Source: a virus (taxonomy: Duplodnaviria; Heunggongvirae; Uroviricota; Caudoviricetes). Taken from it: DNA of 16,614 nucleotides. Positions 5,494 through 16,614 of the stretch are shown here, in pieces. Both the position numbers and the translations under genes were made by a program. Location: the IMG/VR virus record IMGVR_UViG_2778261297_000002; one strand, 5' to 3'. The notes below the pieces were generated by a model. The model did no database searches. It had not been told where the DNA came from and worked only from the letters and a program-made list of their open reading frames with translations. Position 1 is the first letter of the stretch, and each line of letters starts with the position of its first letter.

Positions 5494-5855
5494 CCGATAT
5501 TTTTGAAGTGATAGGCCCATTGTTCCGCAAACTGACCGAAACCTGTATTGCTCACCAGATAGCGGAAACCGGTTCGGCAACCTTGCTGGTGGAAAGCGAT
5601 AAGTATATGGCCCGCTATCGCTTCACGCTGGAGCCGCGCGTAACTGAAAACGTATTGATGAAATATATGATTTTTGGCTGCTTTGAAGAATTCGGGCGCG
5701 ATGAGGGGTTAAGGCGTTTGCGGGATATTCTGCTGACCTGCTTTACCGACGATGGCGATATTAACGAAATGGGGTTGCAGATAGTGAAAAGCTGCCACCT
5801 TGAATACCTGCATGAAGATTTGGAAGCGGATCTTTCCAATAAGGTGCTGCACTGA
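5490..5855 (+). CDS. Hypothetical protein (121 aa)
   Basis: ATGA overlap at 5490-5493; GGAGG at 5476-5480. Confidence 0.6.
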   Translation: MTDIFEVIGPLFRKLTETCIAHQIAETGSATLLVESDKYMARYRFTLEPRVTENVLMKYMIFGCFEEFGRDEGLRRLRDILLTCFTDDGDINEMGLQIVKSCHLEYLHEDLEADLSNKVLH

Positions 5856-7987
5856 TGAAGATGAAAAACGCCCCAAACATTAAGTGTCTGCCAAAGGACA
5901 AGTTTACTGAGGCGATTATTTTTGCGGGGGAAGATGCTTATTCACACGCGCAGCACTGGATCGAGAGCGAGGGGAAAAGGGCGGGGGATGATGTGCCGCC
6001 TGTGTATCTGGGGAAAAAGCAGCTGGAGGAGCTTGAAAGGCTGAATATCATCGATCAGGGGCGTCGTTGCGTACGCGTGATTAGAGCTGGCGAGCTTTCC
6101 GAAATGCAGATAAGCACTATCGCAACCAAACTGGCGCTGGCGGATGTGAAAGAGGCCCGGCTGTTTAATGGCATGTTTGAGCCTCAGCCGAAGGAGAACT
6201 GGACGGATGTACTTCCACGGCTCAGGGAAGATGCCGAGCGTGGGGAAAGTATTGTGGTAAATCTGCCTGTGAAAAAAAGGGAGCCAAAGCCTGAACCGGG
6301 TGATGAACTGAAACCCCGCGTAGAGAGCCGTAACGATGGCCTGTACTGGATCACGCCAAAGGTGGATAAGGACAGCGGAGAAATAATCAATAACGAAACG
6401 TGGCTGTGTTCGCCGCTTGAGGTGGTGGGGTCCGGTAGTGACGGGGCCGAGCGCTATCTCGTTTTGCGCTGGCGTTCGCCACGTGGCCATGAAGATATTA
6501 CCAGGGCGATCCCCTGTGCTGATATCGGTGAGCGTGACGGCTGGCGCTCTCTAAAGGCTGGTGGGGTAAACGTAACGACTAAAAGTACATTCCGGGCAAT
6601 TCTTGCCGACTGGCTACAGCAATGTGGTGCAGGGCAGGAATGGATTATTAGCCATACCACCGGCTGGCATCACGGCGCATACATCATGCCAGATGGTGAA
6701 GTTATCGGTGATCCGGAAATGCCTATTCTCTTTAACGGTCGCAGCGCTGCATCTTCCGGTTATGCCGTGGCTGGAACTGCTGAGAGTTGGCGGGATTCAG
6801 TGGCATATCTGGCAGGAGGCAACCCATCGATGATGCTGGGTGTGGCTGCGGCATTGTCTGCGCCGCTGATCGGGCTGGTGGGCGCTGATGGCTTCGGCGT
6901 CCATTTGTTCGAACAGTCCAGCGCCGGTAAGACTACCACCGCAAATATTGCGAGCAGTATTTGGGGCGAGCCCGACGCTTTGAGGTTGACCTGGTACGGT
7001 ACCGCGCTTGGTATTGCTAACGAGGCAGAGGCGCATAACGACAGCCTGTTACCACTTGATGAGGTAGGGCAGGGCAGCAGTGCTAAAGATGTCGCCACGT
7101 CTGCTTACACTTTGTTTAACGGGGCTGGGAAGTTGCAGGGGGCTAAAGAGGGTGGCAACCGGGAGCTAAAGCGCTGGCGAACTGTTGCGATCAGTACCGG
7201 GGAAATGGATATTGAAACATTCCTGGCTGCTGGTGGAATTAGGGTGAAAGCTGGGCAGCTGGTGCGCCTGCTGAATATCCCCATGGAGAAATCCACGGCC
7301 TTTAACGGGCTGGCTAACGGAAAGGCCCACGCCGATGCACTGAAAGAGTCATGGATTGATAACCACGGCGCAGCAGGGCGTGAGTGGGTAAAATGGCTGG
7401 CAACCCACCAGCAGGAGGCTAAACAGGCTGTGCGGGATGCGCAGACGCGCTGGCGCAGTCTTATTCCGGCTGATTATGGTGAACAGGTTCATCGTGTGGC
7501 TGAGCGCTTCGCCATTCTTGAGGCTGCGCTGGTAACTGGTTCGCCGATAACTGGCTGGAGTGAACAAGCCAGCCGGGATGCTATTCAGCATAGCTTCAAT
7601 GCCTGGGTAAAAGAATTCGGAACAGGTAACAAGGAGCACCAGCAGATCATCGAGCAGTGCGAGGCCTTTCTGAACGCGCATGGTATGAGCCGCTATGCTC
7701 CGCTGCCATACTGCCCGTCAGATATGCCAATTCGTGATATGGCTGGATACCGCGAAAGGGGCAAGCATGATGATTCGCCGATGGTGTTTTATACCTTCCC
7801 TTCTGCGTTCGAAAAAGAGATAGCGCAGGGGTTCAATGCGAAGCAGTTCGCCAGAGTTCTGTCTGAATCTGGAATGTTGACACCCCCAGCAAGCGGCAGG
7901 GGATACCAGCGGAAATCACCGCGTATCGATGGGCGTCAGATTAATGTTTACGTCATTCAGTACCAGCAGGAGGGAACCGAAGAATAA
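5855..7987 (+). CDS. Phage/satellite primase-helicase-like replication protein (P4 alpha-like, P-loop NTPase)
   Basis: 710 aa; Walker A-like FEQSSAGKTTTANIASSIWG in the central region; TGATG overlap with the upstream gene; followed directly by the iteron array. Confidence 0.8.
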   Translation: MKMKNAPNIKCLPKDKFTEAIIFAGEDAYSHAQHWIESEGKRAGDDVPPVYLGKKQLEELERLNIIDQGRRCVRVIRAGELSEMQISTIATKLALADVKEARLFNGMFEPQPKENWTDVLPRLREDAERGESIVVNLPVKKREPKPEPGDELKPRVESRNDGLYWITPKVDKDSGEIINNETWLCSPLEVVGSGSDGAERYLVLRWRSPRGHEDITRAIPCADIGERDGWRSLKAGGVNVTTKSTFRAILADWLQQCGAGQEWIISHTTGWHHGAYIMPDGEVIGDPEMPILFNGRSAASSGYAVAGTAESWRDSVAYLAGGNPSMMLGVAAALSAPLIGLVGADGFGVHLFEQSSAGKTTTANIASSIWGEPDALRLTWYGTALGIANEAEAHNDSLLPLDEVGQGSSAKDVATSAYTLFNGAGKLQGAKEGGNRELKRWRTVAISTGEMDIETFLAAGGIRVKAGQLVRLLNIPMEKSTAFNGLANGKAHADALKESWIDNHGAAGREWVKWLATHQQEAKQAVRDAQTRWRSLIPADYGEQVHRVAERFAILEAALVTGSPITGWSEQASRDAIQHSFNAWVKEFGTGNKEHQQIIEQCEAFLNAHGMSRYAPLPYCPSDMPIRDMAGYRERGKHDDSPMVFYTFPSAFEKEIAQGFNAKQFARVLSESGMLTPPASGRGYQRKSPRIDGRQINVYVIQYQQEGTEE

Positions 7988-8600: not shown

Positions 8601-8795
8601 ATGGCCTTTAACGATTTTATGGAAGAATCGGAATTGTTTGAGCTACTGGGCAAGAAAAAAACGGCTGTATGGCGGTTACGAAAAGACCATGGTTTTCCGA
8701 ATCCTGTTCTTACCTACCCGTCGCGCTACAGCCGCAAAGCTGTAATGAAATGGCTTGAGGATGGTGGTATTAACCGTACGGTTTGTGGTTATTGA
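8601..8795 (+). CDS. Second AlpA-like HTH regulator (64 aa)
   Basis: FELLGKKKTAVWRLRKDHGFPNPV...SRYSRKAVMKWLEDGG matches the AlpA-type pattern; GGAGG 6 nt upstream; terminator follows. Confidence 0.65.
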   Translation: MAFNDFMEESELFELLGKKKTAVWRLRKDHGFPNPVLTYPSRYSRKAVMKWLEDGGINRTVCGY

Positions 8796-8839: not shown

Positions 8840-9500
8840 CTGTCAGGTAGGGATGGATGTTGATCATTACCTGTAATCATTATTCTCCGGCATACCGTTC
8901 GCCTCTTCGCGTAAAGCTGCCAGTCCGTTAGACTCCTCGCCTTTCTGACCAGTTAGAAAAATCCTAGTGGTTAACATCTGTTGAATAAAACAGCAAAAAG
9001 GAGTTCACACCTTACGCACTATACAGTGCTACGCCCAAAGCCGCGTTAACGCTGGCTTTCTGGGGTATACACCCCTTGTGCATAAATAGTGAAACTTGTA
9101 TACAAAAATGAGGAAAATCAGCCTGCAAGGCGTACCAGATAAGGGATTTCTGTGTATACAGGTCAGCTAGTTAATAGGCCATTATTGAGCTGAGCACGGC
9201 AAGGCTGTATCGCAGGGCAGCTACACGCTGGCAGGAAGTCATGATGATTTGTGCTGAGGACGATGATCGGGAATGGGTAAAGCAGCGCCGTGAAACGTGT
9301 CTGGAGAACGTGAAGCGCCCGCCAGTGAAAACCGATGATTACGGCGATCTGCATAAAGCAGTCACTGAGACACAACACCGCATGGGGATAGCGCAACCAA
9401 ACGGCAATGCCTTCCGATTAAATGGTGGTAAGAAGCAACGACAGGCCACCAGCGGGGGCGACAGTTCGCAGTAAGGTTCGCACTAAAACGGCTGTAAATT

Positions 9501-9558
9501 CTGGACTGTCCTGGACGGATTTAAAACCCTAGCAGCGCCAGACCCGCGCCAGTAGTGG
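9501..9558. repeat. Conserved bipartite element, copy 1
   Basis: Arms CTGGACTGTCCTGGAC and AGACCCGCGCCAGTAGTGG, start positions 39 bp apart; near-identical copy at 10094-10151. Confidence 0.6.
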
Positions 9559-9686
9559 GCTGGAAGCTAAATCGTGATTCAGGACGTCCTAAATATCTGG
9601 TTAGTTCCACTGGTACGCAGTACGCAGTCAGGTGCGCAGCAAAACCGCGCATTCAGTTAGGGTTTTTGCGCACAGTGAGCCGTTAA

Positions 9687-10064
9687 ATGAAAAAAAATAG
9701 CCAACAATCAAGATCCGGATGGGGTGGCAAGCGGAAAGGCGCAGGCGCACCGTTGGGCAATACTAATGCCGTCAAACATGGCGAACGCAGTAGGCGGGCA
9801 TTCTTCCCGTTTGAGGGGGGCGAGGCGCTTTCTCCGCTGGTGCGAAATCGTGCAAGAAACCTCATGATGGCTGAGAGATACGGGCTATTACTGGCGACTA
9901 ATCCGACGCCGGGAACAGAAGAATGGCGCGAGATGACATTGATTAACGGACTCATGGGGCTACATGCCGACAGAATCGCACGGCTTGAGCTGAGTTTAGC
10001 GAGATCCGTTTCAATGCAAGCAAGGCGGGATCTGCGAAGGGTTAAAAAAAGCGGCGCATGTTAG
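9687..10064 (+). CDS. Basic N-terminus protein, possible terminase small subunit-like / packaging protein (125 aa)
   Basis: N-terminal GWGGKRKGAGAPLGNTNAVKHG Gly/Lys-rich motif reminiscent of some phage TerS N-termini; function unverified. Confidence 0.4.
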   Translation: MKKNSQQSRSGWGGKRKGAGAPLGNTNAVKHGERSRRAFFPFEGGEALSPLVRNRARNLMMAERYGLLLATNPTPGTEEWREMTLINGLMGLHADRIARLELSLARSVSMQARRDLRRVKKSGAC

Positions 10065-10093
10065 CAATCCGTATAGTCACCGATGTTGAAATA

Positions 10094-10151
10094 CTGGACT
10101 GTTCAGGACAGAACCAAAGCCCATATGAGGCGAGACCCGCACCAGTAGTGG
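10094..10151. repeat. Conserved bipartite element, copy 2
   Basis: Arms CTGGACTGTTCAGGAC and AGACCCGCACCAGTAGTGG with the same 39-bp register as copy 1. Confidence 0.6.
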
Positions 10152-10450
10152 ACAGAATCACGGGCGTGATTGAGCGTAAGACGGGGAAAGCAGCCAGAGG
10201 CATTGGCCTGACTCTGTAAAAGCAAAACGCCCGCACGGGCGTCAGGGAACGGGATAGACTTCTGCGACAATTTGCATTCGCCGCCAATATAGCAAGCCGT
10301 CCACATCAAGCAATAAACTATCACCGGGAGGGGGAGGCCAAATCTCTGCAACCCTGAGCCTTAAGGACTGCCCGCCTCATCGAATGTTTATACCCGCGAA
10401 AAATAAAATTTAATCTGGGCGTGTTTCATCCTTCCAGATGGGTATGACGT

Positions 10451-10636
10451 ATGACACCACGCGAAATAGCTTTATTGACCACCGCCAAACTGGAGCACGA
10501 AGGCCACCAGCTAACCCCGGCAGATCAACGGGAGATAGAACGCTCAGTTAATGCCGATATAGCCCGGCGTGACAAATTCCGCGAAATGATGCGATCACCT
10601 GCCTACCAGTGGAAGAAGCCAGCGCCGCGCAGGTAG
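10451..10636 (+). CDS. Small protein (61 aa), paralog of 14520-14711
   Basis: C-terminus MMRSPAYQWKKPAPRR parallels MTAPAYQWKRPDNPRR in the second copy, with similarity across the whole length; weak RBS. Confidence 0.45.
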   Translation: MTPREIALLTTAKLEHEGHQLTPADQREIERSVNADIARRDKFREMMRSPAYQWKKPAPRR

Positions 10637-10756
10637 ATATGGGATTATTCCACATGTAACTTATGCGTATTAAGCAAATTTCCTTTATTCACCTTTACAG
10701 AATTGTGAGTACGTCAGTATCGTTATCCTTCCGATTCGCATTTATTCAGGATTTGC

Positions 10757-11299
10757 ATGTACCAGCTAAAGATAACCATCCGAGACAGCAAGCCACCTAT
10801 ATGGCGGCGTGTGCTGGTTCCAGAGCAAATCCCCTTTAGTGAACTTCACGCGGTGATCCAGTTGGCTTTTGGCTGGAATGACGAACACCTGTATATGTTC
10901 GAGAAAGGGCGTAAAGGTGATCCCGGTAGCGAGTATCGCGTATGGGGTGAGGATGAAAGCATGGGTAATGCGGCAATCACACCACTATGGGCAGCGCTCC
11001 AGAATGAGGGTGACAGGCTGGTTTACACGTATGACTTTGGCGACTGGTGGGATTGCCTTATTGTGCTGGAGAAGCAAACACACGATACGAGCAATCAGCC
11101 CATTAGCTGCCTGCGTGGGAAAGGCACCACCCCGGCGGAAAACTCAGGCGGCTTGCATGGTTACAATGAATTGCTATTACAGGCCAGAGAGTCTGATAAT
11201 CCTGAGCAGGCCGAGATCCACAATTTCCTGATGCTGGATATTGAACGCCGGGTTTACGACCTGAGCCGCATCAACGACAGATTGCAGGCTATTAACTGA
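10757..11299 (+). CDS. pRiA4b ORF-3-like family protein (180 aa)
   Basis: YQLKITIRDSKPPIWRRVLVP...ELHAVIQLAFGWNDEHLYMF...YTYDFGDWWDCLIVLE matches the conserved pattern of that family (recognised from memory). Confidence 0.65.
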   Translation: MYQLKITIRDSKPPIWRRVLVPEQIPFSELHAVIQLAFGWNDEHLYMFEKGRKGDPGSEYRVWGEDESMGNAAITPLWAALQNEGDRLVYTYDFGDWWDCLIVLEKQTHDTSNQPISCLRGKGTTPAENSGGLHGYNELLLQARESDNPEQAEIHNFLMLDIERRVYDLSRINDRLQAIN

Positions 11300-11651
11300 C
11301 CCGCATGTATTCACCTGATATTGCGTTATCAGCGCCGCCACTATCTCGCACAACGGCACACTGTCCCGGTAAACCGTAGCGCACGACCGTTGCGCTGGTT
11401 TCACCGCCGCGCCGTACCTGACGGGATTCATACACTGTCATTCGCTCAAGCAGTCCACCGGCAACCATGCTTTCGAGCGTGCGGCTGGTTGATTCGAGCT
11501 GGTATCGTTTATCGAACGATCCCATGCCGTGAAGCAGGTAGGCCACGCCCGACACATCGAGTGGCGGAGCGCCGATCTCACCCGATACCCACTCGAGGTT
11601 ATCCGGCTCAAAGTAACTGAGTATCTCTTTTTTGCGGTTGGTCATTCTCAT
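11292..11651 (-). CDS. Winged-helix-like DNA-binding regulator, copy A (119 aa)
   Basis: ILSYFEPDNLEWVSGEIGAPPLDVSGVAYLL suggests a MarR/PadR-like wHTH; AAGGAA upstream; palindromic operator just upstream; paralog at 14708-15067. Confidence 0.65.
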   Translation of the reverse strand: MRMTNRKKEILSYFEPDNLEWVSGEIGAPPLDVSGVAYLLHGMGSFDKRYQLESTSRTLESMVAGGLLERMTVYESRQVRRGGETSATVVRYGLPGQCAVVRDSGGADNAISGEYMRVS

Positions 11652-11666
11652 GGCTGGCAGGTTCCT

Positions 11667-11696
11667 TATTGTGGGATAGCACTATCATACAATAAG
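11667..11696. promoter_or_regulatory. Imperfect 30-bp palindrome, putative operator of regulator A
   Basis: TTATTGTggGATAGcaCTATCatACAATAA, between regulator A and the divergent 11877 operon. Confidence 0.4.
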
Positions 11697-11876
11697 AAGC
11701 GGTGAGGAATGGCTACTTAACTTTCCCCTCCATTTTGTAACGCAATCAGTACCCCCTCATGTAGTCCGCAACTCTTTTAATTAAAATATTTTATCTTGAC
11801 GATTTATTTTATTGATCATAAGTTAACCCCATACAGAAGAAGTATGTACGTTTAACCAGTATCAGGAGGTCAGGAA

Positions 11877-12053
11877 ATGGCAGTCACTAACAAAAAGCCG
11901 ATTCTTGTTGATCAGCCGATTCTCGAAGGGTTACAGCGCCTCCGGGATGATGAATGCCGACGTTCTACCGTAGGCGCAGCCCCAAGCATTCAGGAGCTGG
12001 CGCGTCACCTTTTGCGCCAGGGTATCCACCGGCATGAGGCGGGCAAGAAGTAA
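11877..12053 (+). CDS. Small protein (58 aa), possible RHH-like regulator; first gene of four-gene operon
   Basis: AGGAGG at 11864-11869. Sequence MAVTNKKPILVDQPILEGLQRLRDDECRRSTVGAAPSIQELARHLLRQGIHRHEAGKK has a strand-helix-helix pattern. TTGACG-type promoter candidate at about 11796-11825. Confidence 0.45.
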   Translation: MAVTNKKPILVDQPILEGLQRLRDDECRRSTVGAAPSIQELARHLLRQGIHRHEAGKK

Positions 12054-12079
12054 CTCTGCTGCCCGGAAAGGAGAAACCA

Positions 12080-12856
12080 ATGCCGTTAATGAAATTACCC
12101 ACATGGGCGCTAACAGCGTTCGGTACGAAAGGTAAGAAAAAACAGCCCCAACTATCTGAGGAAAACCCATCCATGTTTGATTTCTCGCATCTGTCAGGCA
12201 AAACCAAAACGAAAGGCGAGTCCGATAACGGTAATGAGCCACTGAAACAGGATAGTGACGATATTCAGGTATATCGCCCAAACAAGCACAGTCGTGGTCA
12301 CAATGTCGCGGTGTCTACTGAGGCTAAGAACAACCCGGTTCTGGCTGTTCGTTTGCTGAAAGAAACAAAGCTTTCATCGAAGAAAATAAAGCAGCAACTG
12401 GCATCGTCGCCGATGGCGCTTTCTGTGTTTACCCAGAAATTTATGGAAGAGAACGATCCGACCTGGGAGTTTCAGGACGACGAAGAGAAAGCCCGAACGG
12501 CGCTGATGTTTTCAACGCAGAACCGTGACGCAAATGGTTACAGCGCTGCCCAGAGTAGCGCTATCAAGGCATTGAAAAAAATGGAAGAGCCTCTGACAGA
12601 GGATGAGGTCAAGGCATTAGCCAACATGACATTGAAGATGCAAAACGAGTACGACCCGATGTCACCTGACAATGTCAATGCTCGCCGCATAGCGGATGAG
12701 GAGTACCGGGAGGAAGTGGCACAGGCCACAGCACGCCGCAATGATCGTATCCGGGCATCTGGTGTGAGCCTGCCGGGAGATACCCGTCGCGTGAATGGCA
12801 AGATTGAAGGGCCAGCAGGCGAAGCCGAACGCCTTAAATCACAGGTTTCTCTCTGA
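12080..12856 (+). CDS. Hypothetical protein (258 aa), paralog of 12865-13359
   Basis: AAGGAG 7 nt upstream. Shares EAKNNPVLAVRLL and DPTWEF...DANGYSAAQSSAIKALKKMEEPLTEDEV with the downstream gene. Confidence 0.7.
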   Translation: MPLMKLPTWALTAFGTKGKKKQPQLSEENPSMFDFSHLSGKTKTKGESDNGNEPLKQDSDDIQVYRPNKHSRGHNVAVSTEAKNNPVLAVRLLKETKLSSKKIKQQLASSPMALSVFTQKFMEENDPTWEFQDDEEKARTALMFSTQNRDANGYSAAQSSAIKALKKMEEPLTEDEVKALANMTLKMQNEYDPMSPDNVNARRIADEEYREEVAQATARRNDRIRASGVSLPGDTRRVNGKIEGPAGEAERLKSQVSL

Positions 12857-12864
12857 GAGGTGCG

Positions 12865-13359
12865 GTGGTGAGCATTATGAACTTTCAGCATCTCAATCCG
12901 CCGCAGCCCGATGCGCAGGCATATGGCTTTTCCGGGCGCCGTATGCAGCGCATGCATCGACTTCAGCAGTCTGTTGAAGACGAGCAACCCCCTGAACGTC
13001 GCCATTCTGATGCACATCTGATCGCGGTGAGAAAAGAGGCCAAACAAAACCCGATACAGGCACTTCATCTTATCGCTGAAGGGATACCACACCAGCGTGC
13101 CATCGCCTTACTGCAGGGCAGCGTTCGGCAGCTCAGTCGTTTTACCCGTCGGGCCATGGAGAAAGCCTATCCTGGCTGGGAACTCCTTGATGCCGAAGAC
13201 CAGAACATGGCGGCATTCCAGCACAGCATGATTAACGGCGACACCAACGGCTATCGGGCTGGTTTTAACGCTGCTCTGTCGGCGCTGGAGAAGTTTGTAG
13301 AGCCAGTTACGTTTGACGATATCGTGAATAGCGTTAATTCGCTGGTGGAGGAAGTATGA
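12865..13359 (+). CDS. Hypothetical protein (about 160 aa), paralog of 12080-12856
   Basis: EAKQNPIQALHLI and YPGWEL...DTNGYRAGFNAALSALEKFVEPVTFDDI parallel the upstream gene. Start ambiguous (GTG 12865, GTG 12868 or ATG 12877). Confidence 0.65.
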   Translation: MVSIMNFQHLNPPQPDAQAYGFSGRRMQRMHRLQQSVEDEQPPERRHSDAHLIAVRKEAKQNPIQALHLIAEGIPHQRAIALLQGSVRQLSRFTRRAMEKAYPGWELLDAEDQNMAAFQHSMINGDTNGYRAGFNAALSALEKFVEPVTFDDIVNSVNSLVEEV

Positions 13360-13535
13360 GTAATTCATTCGATTTTGAGCTGGTTGCTGATGACAGGGCC
13401 AGTGCTGCCATTGACGACATTAATGAGGCTATTCGCAATCTTGGACCGCATCTGGAGAAGACGCGGGAAAGCCTCAGGCTGGGCGGCCTTCCGCCGTCGC
13501 CTTACAAAAATGGGTCCTTCCTGAGCCTTTTGTAA
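13356..13535 (+). CDS. Small acidic protein (59 aa), last gene of operon
   Basis: ATGA overlap with the upstream stop at 13356-13359; hand translation MSNSFDFELVADDRASAAIDDINEAIRNLGPHLEKTRESLRLGGLPPSPYKNGSFLSLL. Confidence 0.4.
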   Translation: MSNSFDFELVADDRASAAIDDINEAIRNLGPHLEKTRESLRLGGLPPSPYKNGSFLSLL

Positions 13536-13586
13536 GGCACGGGCATTGCGCGCCGCGGTGTTTTCCTAGCTACAGGTTTTGAATTT

Positions 13587-13792
13587 GATTGACACTTTAC
13601 ACTAAGGTTTTTCCGGTTGCTGGGTTGTTAACTCCCTTGAGCGGCAAGGGATTACCGGGAATAACCGCCGATCCTGATTGACAGTTAGATTGACACTTTC
13701 TGCCTGAAAAGTGTCAACCGGACAGAAAAAGTGTCAAGTAGCTGGCGCTTTACAGTTTGATTGACAGTTTCCCGCCGGTGGGTTGACACATT
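13587..13792. repeat. Array of 7 TTGACA(C/G) motifs in both orientations upstream of the 13826 gene
   Basis: Forward copies at 13589, 13678, 13690, 13761, 13783; inverted at 13711 and 13731. Includes the palindrome TTGACACTTT-ctgcctg-AAAGTGTCAA. Confidence 0.6.
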
Positions 13793-13825
13793 GCCTGCCA
13801 ATGATAATTACCCAGGAGAAAAAAT

Positions 13826-14413
13826 ATGTCGCTGATGAGTGTGAGTCAGTACGCTAAACACGCAGGGCTAAGTCGTCAGGCCCTCTACAACTGGGAGGCT
13901 AAGCAAGGTTTCCCCGCACGAGTGGACGGCAAGATTGACCAACTGGCCTGTGATGCCTACCTGGCCCGATACCGCAGCGCCAGTGACCCGCGCACGAAGA
14001 ATGCCAGGGGGAAAACCAAATCTGCTCCAGCCGGTCAGGCGCAGGGGAGTGCGCTGGTGGAAATGAGTGTTGCGGAGATTAAGCGCATCATAGTGTCAGG
14101 TGCCGGTAAGGTGGCCGGGATGGATCCGGACGAACGAGCCCAACTGGCTGCAAAGGCCGTAGAGCTGTTTGTAAGCGAAGGGCCTTATAACCCTCCTGTA
14201 ACGTTCGGCGGCTACCGGCTGTCGATTGTTGAAACGCCAGATGTTGAAATCGGGCAGATCATCGCGGGCGGCGCGTTCGGCCTGTCTGCATATGATGTGA
14301 TTTACGAGTGCCGGGATTACACCCTGACTCTCATGAGCGATGAAACCGAAGAAACAGCCATGCGGAGAGTGATCCCTTCGTTGCTGTATGCCCTGGCCGA
14401 CGATACCGACTAA
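13826..14413 (+). CDS. HTH-containing protein (195 aa), N-terminal MerR/Nu1-like helix-turn-helix
   Basis: N-terminus SVSQYAKHAGLSRQALYNWEAKQGFP looks like a phage HTH; AGGAG 7 nt upstream; strong terminator downstream. Confidence 0.65.
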   Translation: MSLMSVSQYAKHAGLSRQALYNWEAKQGFPARVDGKIDQLACDAYLARYRSASDPRTKNARGKTKSAPAGQAQGSALVEMSVAEIKRIIVSGAGKVAGMDPDERAQLAAKAVELFVSEGPYNPPVTFGGYRLSIVETPDVEIGQIIAGGAFGLSAYDVIYECRDYTLTLMSDETEETAMRRVIPSLLYALADDTD

Positions 14414-14443
14414 AGCAAAGTGTGCCAGCGGGCTCCTGTTATT

Positions 14444-14469
14444 CCAGCCCTCCGGGGCTGGCTTTTTAT
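14444..14469 (+). terminator. Rho-independent terminator
   Basis: CCAGCCC-tccg-GGGCTGG followed by CTTTTTAT. Confidence 0.65.
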
Positions 14470-14519
14470 AACGATGCTCAGGGCGTAGCCGGTGAGCCTA
14501 TAGAGCAGGAAGATATAGC

Positions 14520-14711
14520 GTGTTAAAACAGAAGAAAATCGAGGCGGTAATTGAAGAGCTGGCCCGCCTGCAGGGGAATGAGCTGAATGCCACCGATATG
14601 CTGGAGTTACGTTGCAGGGTTGCGGGAACGCTCGTTGCTAAAGAACGGCACCGCCGGAGGATGACGGCACCAGCCTACCAGTGGAAGAGGCCAGATAATC
14701 CACGTCGTTAA
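14520..14711 (+). CDS. Small protein (63 aa), paralog of 10451-10636
   Basis: GTG start with AGGA 8 nt upstream; shares the C-terminal PAYQWK(K/R)P...PRR motif; stop overlaps the convergent regulator B. Confidence 0.45.
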   Translation: MLKQKKIEAVIEELARLQGNELNATDMLELRCRVAGTLVAKERHRRRMTAPAYQWKRPDNPRR

Positions 14712-15067
14712 ACGACCCGCACATATTCGCCTTCTATCGTGCCGTCTGCACCTCCCGTATCGCGTACCACTGAAACGGTACCCGGCAGGCCGTAACGGAC
14801 AACGGTAGCGGTCGTCTCGCCGCCCATAACGATACTCCGCGCCTCCCTGCTCCGGTACCTCTCCAGCAACCCATCTTTCACCATTGCTTCCAGCGTTCGT
14901 CTGGTGGATTCGAGCCAGTGCCGGTTGTCTTCGAGGCCTGTCCCATACAGCAGGTACGCCACGCCGGATACATCAAGGGGAGGTGCGCCGATCTCACCCG
15001 TCACCCAGTCGCGGTTATCCGGTTCGAAGTAGCTGAGTATCGTCTTTTTGCGGCTGGTTAGTCTCAT
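14708..15067 (-). CDS. Winged-helix-like DNA-binding regulator, copy B (119 aa from ATG 15067)
   Basis: MRLTSRKKTILSYFEPDNRDWVTGEIGAPPLDVSGVAYLL aligns along its length with copy A; AAGGA upstream of ATG 15067 (the six-frame ORF extends to 15103). Confidence 0.65.
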   Translation of the reverse strand: MRLTSRKKTILSYFEPDNRDWVTGEIGAPPLDVSGVAYLLYGTGLEDNRHWLESTRRTLEAMVKDGLLERYRSREARSIVMGGETTATVVRYGLPGTVSVVRDTGGADGTIEGEYVRVV

Positions 15068-15080
15068 AGTGGGAGATTCC

Positions 15081-15106
15081 TTATTGTATGACAGTGCTAT
15101 CATACA
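15081..15106. promoter_or_regulatory. Palindromic putative operator of regulator B
   Basis: TTATTGTATGAcagtgcTATCATACA with arms TGTATGA / TCATACA; same position relative to the start as operator A. Confidence 0.4.
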
Positions 15107-15320
15107 TTAGTAATTCATGACAATCCGCCGTCATGGCTGGTGGTCACAGTCATGATAAATGTGCTCAGCCCATTCCCGGTTGAGTATGGGGGACGCATTC
15201 AACATCGAGGCATTTATAACTAATTGATGGTTATGTTTATGGAATTTGATGTTTTATAGCAGTAGGATGAAATCGCATAGACTATGCACAGCTATTACTC
15301 TGGATATACAAGGAATTTAT

Positions 15321-15860
15321 ATGTCATTAGCTAACAAAATGAAACTACAAGATCTTAAAGCAAAAATTGAAGAATTCAGCGCTCCTCGGCGCGAGTTGTT
15401 GAATAAACAAATAAATGATGCTGCTACTGCTATTCAGAAAGATGTTTTGGAATTTTTTAAATCTAAAGGATTTACAATTACAGGCCAGACTCCTAAGTTG
15501 AAAGCCACTTATAACGGCGGCCTTGATACTCTCATTGATTTCTCAAAACTCACAGGAAGCTTCTTTGGTTGTGATGGTGCAGTTGAGTTCAAATATGAAA
15601 ATAAAGAATTTTCGCTTAATTACTCTATAAAACGTGGAAAGTCCCCGGAGCGTAATTCTTGGGCTGGTAGGCCTGATGAAATGCTACTAAAAGAAATTGA
15701 GTTCTATGAGAAAGAATTATTGCCGTATTTAGAGTCAACTGGTGTTTCAGACCTAAGCGGCGAGGTGGTTTTGTTCTCAATGGTTAAAAACGCAACAGGT
15801 AAACCAACTACGCAGAAGTATGAAAGTGTTGAGCAAGCACTGAACAGCCTCATGGATTAA
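15321..15860 (+). CDS. Hypothetical protein (179 aa), AT-rich cargo gene at the right edge
   Basis: AGGAA 5 nt upstream of ATG 15321 (ORF track extends to 15246); sampled lines about 27-38 percent G+C; terminator follows. Confidence 0.6.
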   Translation: MSLANKMKLQDLKAKIEEFSAPRRELLNKQINDAATAIQKDVLEFFKSKGFTITGQTPKLKATYNGGLDTLIDFSKLTGSFFGCDGAVEFKYENKEFSLNYSIKRGKSPERNSWAGRPDEMLLKEIEFYEKELLPYLESTGVSDLSGEVVLFSMVKNATGKPTTQKYESVEQALNSLMD

Positions 15861-15868
15861 ATGTCTGC

Positions 15869-15905
15869 ACCATGCCTGCAATCGTAAGCAGGCATGGTAT
15901 TCATT
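15869..15905 (+). terminator. Hairpin terminator / possible element boundary
   Basis: ACCATGCCTGC-aatcgtaa-GCAGGCATGGT followed by ATTCATT. Confidence 0.5.
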
Positions 15906-16077
15906 ACCCCTACAATATTTCCTTGCTATAATCCCCAGCTCTTTGGAATGTGCTCATGCTTATGCGTGATTTCGGCTCTGTGCGATAATCCGTATATCAA
16001 TCGGTGTATCAATATTTACTGAATTGCATAGTGTGAGATTGAATTTAACTGATTAAAATCAGTGAGATATATAGATT

Positions 16078-16614
16078 ATGAAACATATTGTAGAAGTAAT
16101 GATCCCCGAAGCGGAGATTAAAGCGCGTATCGCCGAACTGGGTCGTCAGATTACTGAGCGTTACAAAGACAGCGGCAGCGATATGGTGCTGGTGGGTCTG
16201 CTGCGTGGCTCATTTATGTTTATGGCGGACCTGTGCCGTGAAGTTCAGGTATCTCATGAAGTCGACTTTATGACCGCCTCCAGCTACGGTAGCGGCATGT
16301 CCACCACCCGTGATGTGAAAATCCTCAAAGATCTGGATGAAGATATCCGTGGCAAGGACGTGCTGATTGTTGAAGATATCATCGACTCGGGGAATACACT
16401 GTCGAAAGTGCGTGAGATCTTAAGCCTGCGCGAACCGAAGTCGTTGGCGATTTGTACGCTGCTGGATAAACCGTCCCGTCGTGAAGTGAACGTCCCGGTT
16501 GAATTTATCGGTTTCTCGATCCCGGATGAGTTTGTGGTGGGTTACGGCATTGATTACGCACAGCGTTACCGTCATCTGCCGTATATCGGCAAAGTGATTC
16601 TGCTGGACGAGTAA
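16078..16614 (+). CDS. hpt: Hypoxanthine phosphoribosyltransferase
   Basis: 178 aa, near-identical by recall to enterobacterial Hpt ([32 protein letters not shown] ... [18 protein letters not shown]-binding motif); normal composition. Confidence 0.95.

Follow-up and report, generated by a model that had tools for sequence, protein, structure and literature searches.

We describe a gene for a pRiA4b-ORF3-like protein (hereafter pRiA4) at positions 10757-11299 of a 16,614-nucleotide stretch of Caudoviricetes DNA (IMG/VR record IMGVR_UViG_2778261297_000002), the whole of which we call the window. The window is a ~16-kb Escherichia coli phage satellite resembling phage-inducible chromosomal islands (PICIs), integrated between gcd and hpt. 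It carries two modules, A and B, each with a small gene, S, followed by an inward-facing gene, R, and pRiA4 sits between S and R of module A. Comparison with related loci makes it probable that pRiA4 is the resident cargo of a slot between S and R, that its entry into this slot was a single event older than the split between the A-type and B-type lineages, with repeated losses afterwards, and that it is a moron-like gene of conflict between mobile elements. The gene is already annotated in RefSeq; its setting is what concerns us here.

pRiA4 is a genuine member of the PF07929 (PRiA4_ORF3) family, and all three family features tested are present. A Pfam scan matched positions 3-167 of the 173-position model at 145.5 bits (E=1.8e-42), where the gathering score is 26.6, the protein shares the MM3350-like fold through its match to PDB 2I1S (E=1.5e-21), and the family-invariant residues of the WRR, YxYDFGDxW and PxE..GG.xGY motifs are all found in it. 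In a 62-sequence alignment of the family, with 14 invariant and 19 nearly invariant columns, the window protein has every one. The first-pass annotation, made from the sequence without database searches, had assigned the gene to this family and described the family as widespread on plasmids and mobile elements and as functionally uncharacterised, and on each count we agree. A protein search for PF07929-type proteins matched 2,796 plasmid records, one member is an IS66 passenger in a Pseudomonas phage, and another is carried as a transposon passenger (PMC3942029). Literature searches yielded no functional paper on PF07929, MM3350 or PRiA4_ORF3 and no described function, and a 2026 survey of Enterobacter satellites leaves the family unmentioned. 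The named reference members are Agrobacterium pRiA4b ORF-3 and Methanosarcina mazei MM3350, the latter (2I1S) a structural-genomics entry described merely as of unknown function. The enterobacterial pRiA4 clade is monophyletic, with at least 57% identity inside it and at most 39-41% to anything else, and purifying selection acts on the gene (dN/dS, the ratio of nonsynonymous to synonymous divergence, is 0.1-0.2). Unlike other PF07929 or MM3350-like proteins, the subclade of the window protein is, in the loci examined, mostly tied to the satellite slot between S and R, with exceptions at L028 and L050/L051 (numbers beginning with L denote individual loci).

The coordinates confirm the layout that the first-pass annotation described, with pRiA4 between S_A and R_A and no such gene between S_B and R_B, whose stops overlap by 4 bp and mark an empty slot. 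Its further claim, that copy B is intact and copy A secondarily interrupted, is not supported, in view of occupied B slots, a shared junction, deletion scars and prevalence. The 663-bp cassette that holds the gene was found in 376 of 5,426 complete Escherichia coli genomes, in 371 of them at at least 80% coverage. Counted separately from that set, A-type R reached at least 80% coverage in 377 of the 5,426, and pRiA4 was listed under the match in 27 of the 28 full-length rows sampled for A-type R. The S-pRiA4-R order also occurs in Enterobacter, Kluyvera, Lonsdalea, Atlantibacter and Klebsiella. It is the prevalent, older arrangement; an ancestral copy-A order, which that annotation had itself named as fatal to its proposal, is largely what the relatives display.

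The B slot can likewise be occupied. In L003, an E. coli satellite at the hpt site, an S_B-like gene is followed by 400 bp, pRiA4 and an R_B-like gene, and the B slot is similarly filled with pRiA4 in L014 (Klebsiella, hpt site) and in L030. Window module A aligns with L003 without gaps from 10756 to 11694, at 74% identity, straight across the boundary between pRiA4 and R, whose stop codons overlap by 8 bp in both (11292-11299 in the window). This overlap is conserved in L002-L010, L003, L014, L029 and L048, and thus in a third pRiA4 subclade as well (L048/L049, 81% identity). Between the A and B types, pRiA4 stands at 73% amino acid identity (synonymous divergence, dS, ~1.3) and R at 69-70% (dS at least 1.6), so pRiA4 appears to have diverged roughly in step with R. 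Because the junction is shared, the divergence parallel and the pRiA4 clade monophyletic, a single acquisition before the A/B split would fit better than repeated insertion at an identical position. The idea of an insertion would then fail as a recent event in copy A and hold at a deeper level, where pRiA4 was acquired once into the slot between S and R.

Losses can be seen in part. In E. coli X14-3 (L041), S is followed by 24 bp of the cassette leader (to 10660), 16 bp and then an R with a pRiA4-type end (TTAACTGAC); in E. coli ET479 (L040), 63 bp of the leader remain (to 10699), ahead of 136 unrelated bp and R from 11291. Because leader remnants remain, both are deletions of pRiA4-bearing A-type modules. 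Module B itself has a recombination breakpoint exactly at its slot, since its identities to L003 differ on the two sides (77-87% to the left, 95-99% to the right) and since the 3' tail of R_B departs from that of L003. In blocks of 51 nucleotides, R_B is 90-100% identical to the L003 gene over nucleotides 1-306 (100% over 1-153) and 71% identical in the last 51, a block in which L003 and L014 agree at 92%. A first neighbor-joining tree of R placed R_B outside L003 and L014; we made no use of its topology, which is an artefact of this recombinant tail. By parsimony, module B is most likely an empty version that lost pRiA4.

The contrary polarity would make the S-R pair of module B an ancestral two-gene module and pRiA4 a secondary insertion into copy A. 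Empty S-R modules do exist (window B, L031, L012 and L041), the more distant R loci are without pRiA4, and the limits of the cassette are exactly the S stop and the R stop. Against these stand the leader remnants that mark L040 and L041 as deletions, the filled B slots of L003, L014 and L030, the identical pRiA4/R junction in A and B types together with a pRiA4 as diverged as R, and the presence of the gene in ~371 of ~377 E. coli A-type loci; target duplications and terminal inverted repeats are also not visible by eye at the cassette ends. We give this polarity little credence, and for the lineage that holds both modules it is already largely refuted. Three points nevertheless weigh against loss in module B. 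No remnant of a B-type cassette is left there, so that the loss would have been without a scar; the breakpoint in R_B could equally record the import of an ancestrally empty allele; and the empty Shimwellia modules (L011, L012), in which no scar is seen and the R tail (...RVG) resembles the tails of distant R genes, could have been empty from the outset or have been replaced.

The limits of the cassette are precise. Compared with the empty A-type module L012, homology stops at the S stop (10636) and restarts at 11299, and the segment that this relative lacks, 10637-11298, is precisely a 120-bp leader plus the open reading frame. The frame begins with ATG, 5 nt downstream of an AGGA Shine-Dalgarno sequence. 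Within the leader lies a promoter-like element, TTTACA-N18-TATCGT, that in a promoter scan is by itself not above chance. Both hexamers are kept in all A-type loci and also in Serratia L028, where the spacer sequence is different; B-type leaders have a different sequence with a perfect TATAAT. This conservation suggests that pRiA4 has its own promoter. Reading the junctions at 10637 and 11298 by eye, with no formal repeat test, we saw no inverted repeats, target-site duplication or transposase, and a transposon-type insertion of pRiA4 was rejected as none of the three was seen. A 9-bp imperfect direct match at the cassette ends (CCRCATGTA) was judged compatible with chance. Segment identities across the module form a mosaic: the window and L002 share 98% in pRiA4, 90% in R and 74% in S, and the comparison with L004, L009 and L010 gives 97-98% in S and 93-94% in pRiA4. 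The mosaic points to frequent homologous exchange inside the module.

The presence of two modules is explained by the chimeric make-up of the island. From 9203 to 11695, the window matches the right end of L002, a very common satellite at the dinD/yicG site, at 85-96% identity. The match ends at 11695, exactly where the palindrome upstream of R_A ends, and at the same point in L002 it ends ~90 bp before the adjacent dinD gene. From 11713 to 16614 the window instead matches the right arm of the hpt-site satellite L003 (77-99%), which in L003 directly follows the replication module. The right arm of the window is thus chimeric: a block from dinD-site satellites (9203-11695) is followed by the right arm that belongs to an hpt-site satellite (11713-16013). 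Both blocks end alike, with S closing the rightward operon, then a cargo slot, then an inward-facing R behind its palindrome. The first-pass annotation spoke of a duplicated module. R is 70% and S 37% identical between the copies, however, and at the DNA level little aligns beyond ~230 nt of R and its upstream region; the duplication is ancient or xenologous, and the two modules are better read, from these comparisons, as the right-terminal units of two satellite lineages. The same dual-module island is present in Enterobacter roggenkampii (95.6% identity) and is rare in E. coli, where coverage of the region reaches 80% or more in 3 of the 5,426 genomes.

We then find, on a deeper scale, that the interval between S and R is a variable cargo slot. 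This was shown with R-family loci from three sources: a sampling of a single genome for each species, contigs of metagenomic and genomic origin, and E. coli. pRiA4 is the sole cargo in L002, L004-L009, L029, L038 and L048/L049; for L029 (pRiA4 at '62%', a fragmented primase and a gapped alignment, probably a noisy assembly) we used the gene order alone. In L010 it is accompanied by a SocA/Panacea antitoxin-domain gene and a 145-amino-acid partner, read as a toxin-antitoxin pair, and in L014 by a transposase that is IS256-like by its N-terminal sequence. Besides the empty slots (window B, L031, L012, L041), other loci hold an M78 peptidase (CapP/RmrA-like) with a membrane protein (L013), inserts that bear an integrase (L015, L021), a CHAD protein (L022) or, in Klebsiella pneumoniae (L034-L037), ~3.5 kb of strain-variable unknown genes, in which PADLOC and Pfam gave weak helix-turn-helix matches only. 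Two related elements have known defence systems at the position of pRiA4, SoFic in L023 (E=1.6e-46) and ShosT/ShosA in L024 (E=4e-49 and 2e-100), with R damaged in both. A capsid-forming PICI in Salmonella has R as its terminal gene.

Several of these loci deserve separate mention. L024 (CACSKA010000004.1) is titled Chryseobacterium sp., and its enterobacterial-type satellite, with a primase 71% identical in amino acids to that of the window and with ShosTA, suggests contamination or a mislabelled assembly. In Serratia L028 (1609-2892), a 75% identical pRiA4 has neither S nor R beside it, and a Phd/Doc toxin-antitoxin pair comes next; the gene before it encodes a DUF2280 protein, as does the gene before R in Serratia L019. 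L050 (565-3959) and L051 have an empty S-R module, an integrase fragment and then pRiA4, whose stop overlaps by 8 bp a convergent gene for a 429-amino-acid DUF2254 protein in place of R, an arrangement that may be a decayed tandem element.

Two genes frame the slot. S homologues flank it in most R loci, and the S_A C-terminus APAYQWKKPxPRR is conserved; S has no PADLOC family. R has no match in Pfam, NCBIfam, PADLOC, PHROG or PDB and belongs to a narrow family of 467 clusters at 90% identity, in which every cluster with a name comes from Enterobacterales; a profile search of 1.84 billion representatives returned 93 matches, mostly fragments. A palindrome directly upstream of R is kept at 23 of 23 R genes compared, in many genera; beyond it, the upstream sequences of the loci are unrelated. 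In the window its half-site occurs only at the two R genes (4 matches against 0.8 expected), and the half-site search placed no such palindrome upstream of pRiA4 or S. Among distant R homologues, one gave a sub-threshold Pfam match to HVO_A0114, and another consists of an R-like N-terminus fused to a T5orf172/MUG113 domain. Because the palindrome is conserved and because of this fusion, we propose that R would be a winged-helix DNA binder that regulates itself through its own palindrome and is not a dedicated partner of S or pRiA4. Autoregulation of this kind is plausible from the sequence comparisons, and so is the label of regulator given to R in the first-pass annotation.

S, pRiA4 and R are neighbours and not an obligate system, since they are also found apart: R without S in L011 and L032, S without R in L047, and pRiA4 without either in L028. 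This bears on the alternative that pRiA4 and R form a two-gene unit, in which R represses or neutralises pRiA4 (as in a toxin-antitoxin or sensor-effector pair) or convergent transcription silences pRiA4. The conserved 8-bp convergent overlap and the co-divergence of the two genes would suit such a unit, as would the lack of a predicted terminator between them, and a minus-strand terminator-like hairpin beyond S_A (10243-10226) means that an R transcript could run antisense through pRiA4. We nonetheless judge the unit a slim prospect: many loci, capsid-forming PICIs included, have R without pRiA4, Serratia L028 and L050 have pRiA4 without R, and the R-type palindrome stands upstream of R only and is absent upstream of pRiA4.

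Other observations concern the same genes. Over 27 nt, the S 3' ends at 10596-10622 and 14668-14694 are 92.6% identical although the S proteins are only 37% identical, and a partly complementary (inverted) copy lies at 9594-9620, in the intergenic DNA before the gene for the 125-amino-acid protein; the conserved end could be a DNA site or mere protein constraint. The minus-strand hairpin (10226-10243) could terminate a leftward R_A transcript only once this had crossed pRiA4 and S_A in antisense. A further terminator-like hairpin lies on the plus strand at 14444-14461, between the gene for the 195-amino-acid protein and S_B.

We return to pRiA4 as resident slot cargo. After a single entry that would have created the 8-bp overlap with R, the gene would have been inherited, shuffled by homologous recombination, and lost several times through deletion or allelic replacement. 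It would be transcribed in the integrated state from its own sigma-70 promoter, in the manner of a moron. The product is predicted to be small and non-enzymatic, a binding protein in which a beta-grasp-like core carries a helical tail; binding is favored over catalysis because no catalytic domain is recognisable. A fold search against BFVD viral structures gave no significant match. Its role is probably in conflict between elements, either excluding competing phages or interfering with the helper, and this inter-element (anti-phage) function is our best guess.

Some of the evidence runs counter to this account of function. pRiA4 is near-invariant in the A lineage (~98% of loci), unlike the fast turnover of defence cargo, and its near-fixation would suit a quasi-core function in the satellite no less than defence. 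In the two loci with known defence systems, L023 and L024, R is truncated or degenerate and the frame is not intact. PADLOC, PHROG and NCBIfam searches returned no match for pRiA4, and distant PF07929 members have heterogeneous neighbourhoods with no common partner. For R, a structure predicted by AF2 from a 26-sequence alignment had a pLDDT (predicted local distance difference test) of 47 and was unusable for a fold search.

If near-fixation is given more weight, pRiA4 might be a quasi-core gene of the satellite life cycle, acting in helper interference, redirection of packaging or capsids, or control of induction. It directly follows the genes for a terminase-small-subunit (TerS)-like protein and S, on the same strand and with no predicted terminator between, it persists across islands with differing primases and integration sites, and purifying selection acts on it. 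Yet other satellites in this family manage without it, whether with empty slots, with other cargo or as capsid-forming relatives; it has its own conserved promoter-like leader; and its family is found mostly on plasmids and transposons without a helper phage (PMC3942029). We regard a life-cycle role as unlikely, if somewhat less so than the other alternatives. A further proposal has PF07929 proteins working for the mobile element that carries them, either as anti-defence factors or as DNA-binding accessories in recombination or transposition. Old 'TnpR/resolvase' labels suggest the second version; we think the proposal improbable.

Table 1. Coordinates of the principal features in the window
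Feature	Position	Strand	Description
125-amino-acid protein, terminase-small-subunit-like N-terminal motif	9687..10064	+	phrog_1889 E=0.004; NF040601 E=9e-4, far below cut-off
S_A, 61-amino-acid protein	10451..10636	+	last gene of rightward operon, left slot border; phrog_7271 E=4.9e-5
Cassette leader, 120 bp	10637..10756	+	promoter-like TTTACA-N18-TATCGT 10694-10723; AGGA 10748-10751
pRiA4b-ORF3-like gene (pRiA4)	10757..11299	+	180 amino acids; PF07929 / MM3350-like fold
R_A, 119 amino acids	11292..11651	-	inward-facing terminal gene, right slot border
24-bp palindrome TTGTGGGATAG-CA-CTATCATACAA	11669..11692		directly upstream of R_A ribosome-binding site; operator-like
195-amino-acid protein, N-terminal helix-turn-helix, TerS/excisionase-like	13826..14413	+	precedes S_B; phrog_57 E=1.9e-9
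S_B, 63 amino acids, S_A paralogue	14520..14711	+	phrog_7271 E=4.8e-24; 37% identical to S_A
R_B, 119 amino acids, R_A paralogue	14708..15067	-	70% identical to R_A
Second palindrome copy, upstream of R_B	15084..15107		same TTGTGGGATAG-CA-CTATCATACAA element
Probable attR core TATCAATCGGTGTATCAAT	15995..16013		the other copy of this 19-mer lies upstream of int and outside the window, its end 29 bp before position 1

The remaining gene content of the window is that of a satellite (Table 1). Integrase domains identify a tyrosine integrase at 1-1227, directly 3' of which lies an Rfam int-alpA RNA (RF02996; 1236-1303, plus strand; 60.8 bits against a gathering score of 35.8). The sole HTH_17 match (8601-8795; E=0.0011) reaches 19.6 bits, below the 27-bit cut-off. 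A DUF927 primase-type protein is encoded at 5855-7987; AntA-like and Icd-like genes are also present, and RefSeq annotates a PerC-family gene. No capsid, tail, portal or lysis families were found among 20 open reading frames scanned with Pfam or 10 right-arm frames scanned with PHROGs, and terminase appeared in those scans only as weak small-subunit-like PHROG matches. Neither the 125- nor the 195-amino-acid protein matches the Rpp chains in PDB (6HLK/6HN7) at E up to 1, and PDB sequence searches with R and with both proteins found nothing that would mark any of them as an Rpp homologue. Adjacent frames at 12080-12856 (258 amino acids) and 12865-13359 (164 amino acids) are paralogues with 39% identity over ~109 amino acids; neither has a significant family match, beyond one marginal PADLOC match to DrmD (E=5.7e-4).

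A 19-bp perfect direct repeat, TATCAATCGGTGTATCAAT, bounds ~16.06 kb (L001 2354-2372 and 18396-18414). On the gcd side there is also a 20-bp repeat of the 5' end of hpt (95%; L001 2203-2222 against 18478-18497), and because of this copy integration at the start of hpt is suggested. Two relatives recorded under other names lend weight to the satellite reading. L038 (CP031370.2; 19,229 bp), a circular Klebsiella 'plasmid' with the order int-attP-R-pRiA4-S, is most simply an excised satellite recorded as a plasmid; small circular Klebsiella/Raoultella 'plasmids' (L038, NZ_CP033626.1 and NZ_CP146545.1, of which L038 was inspected) carry a pRiA4 90-93% identical. L047 (LR881103.1; 16.5 kb, from induced particles), named 'Escherichia phage vB_KppS-Ant', has an S-like gene last before int and is a capsid-forming PICI-like relative and not a phage. 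Its 2.3-kb gene annotated 'tape measure', between TerL and the S-like gene, may be slot cargo.

Taken together, one tight PF07929 clade is placed in a precisely bounded satellite cargo slot in which relatives carry defence systems. A broader and more tentative proposal, which we would not yet favor, is that PF07929 is an unrecognised single-gene effector of conflicts between mobile elements, through anti-phage exclusion or helper interference, and that the S...R frame and palindrome form a dedicated cargo site exchangeable by recombination. If true, this would explain the family's presence on thousands of plasmids, on transposons and in a satellite defence slot. The 663-bp cassette has its own leader and occurs naturally in filled and empty versions of two slots, and so offers a clean and cheap experimental entry; should no phage phenotype emerge, the outcome would be an ordinary one, a conserved hypothetical cargo gene. 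In either case the island is a worked example of the shuffling of satellite right ends, a chimera with its breakpoint exactly at the slot.

The slot invites comparison with known arrangements. Hotspots of P4-like satellites and P2-like phages, as Rousset et al. are said to have described in 2022, have conserved flanking genes around variable defence cargo. The window likewise has conserved flanks around a variable cargo region in a phage satellite, but the satellite family and the flanking genes are different, and no P4 alpha, sid, psu or delta was found among the open reading frames scanned. PICIs carry immune systems at their 5' or 3' ends (work of the Penades laboratory, summarised in PMC11364771), and the context of pRiA4 is equivalent to their known 3' accessory region. 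Like these accessory regions, pRiA4 lies at the 3' end, after packaging-type genes and beside attR, and in relatives the corresponding position is taken by SoFic, ShosTA or toxin-antitoxin pairs; unlike them, the window slot is precisely bounded by S and R with a conserved palindrome, the A-lineage cargo is almost fixed, and pRiA4 is not known to be an immune gene. PF07929-family passenger open reading frames are also known from p-MULT (ISAzba1-group) transposons and as the 'TnpR' of IS1096 (PMC3942029), where the same family is again non-transposase cargo of a mobile element. The window cassette, in contrast, is without transposase, terminal repeats or target duplication, and its pRiA4 moves with, or recombines between, satellites. 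pRiA4 is a member of no described defence family, in keeping with its lack of a PADLOC match, and what is new here is the precise S...R slot with its palindrome, the chimeric island with two right ends, and the reversed polarity.

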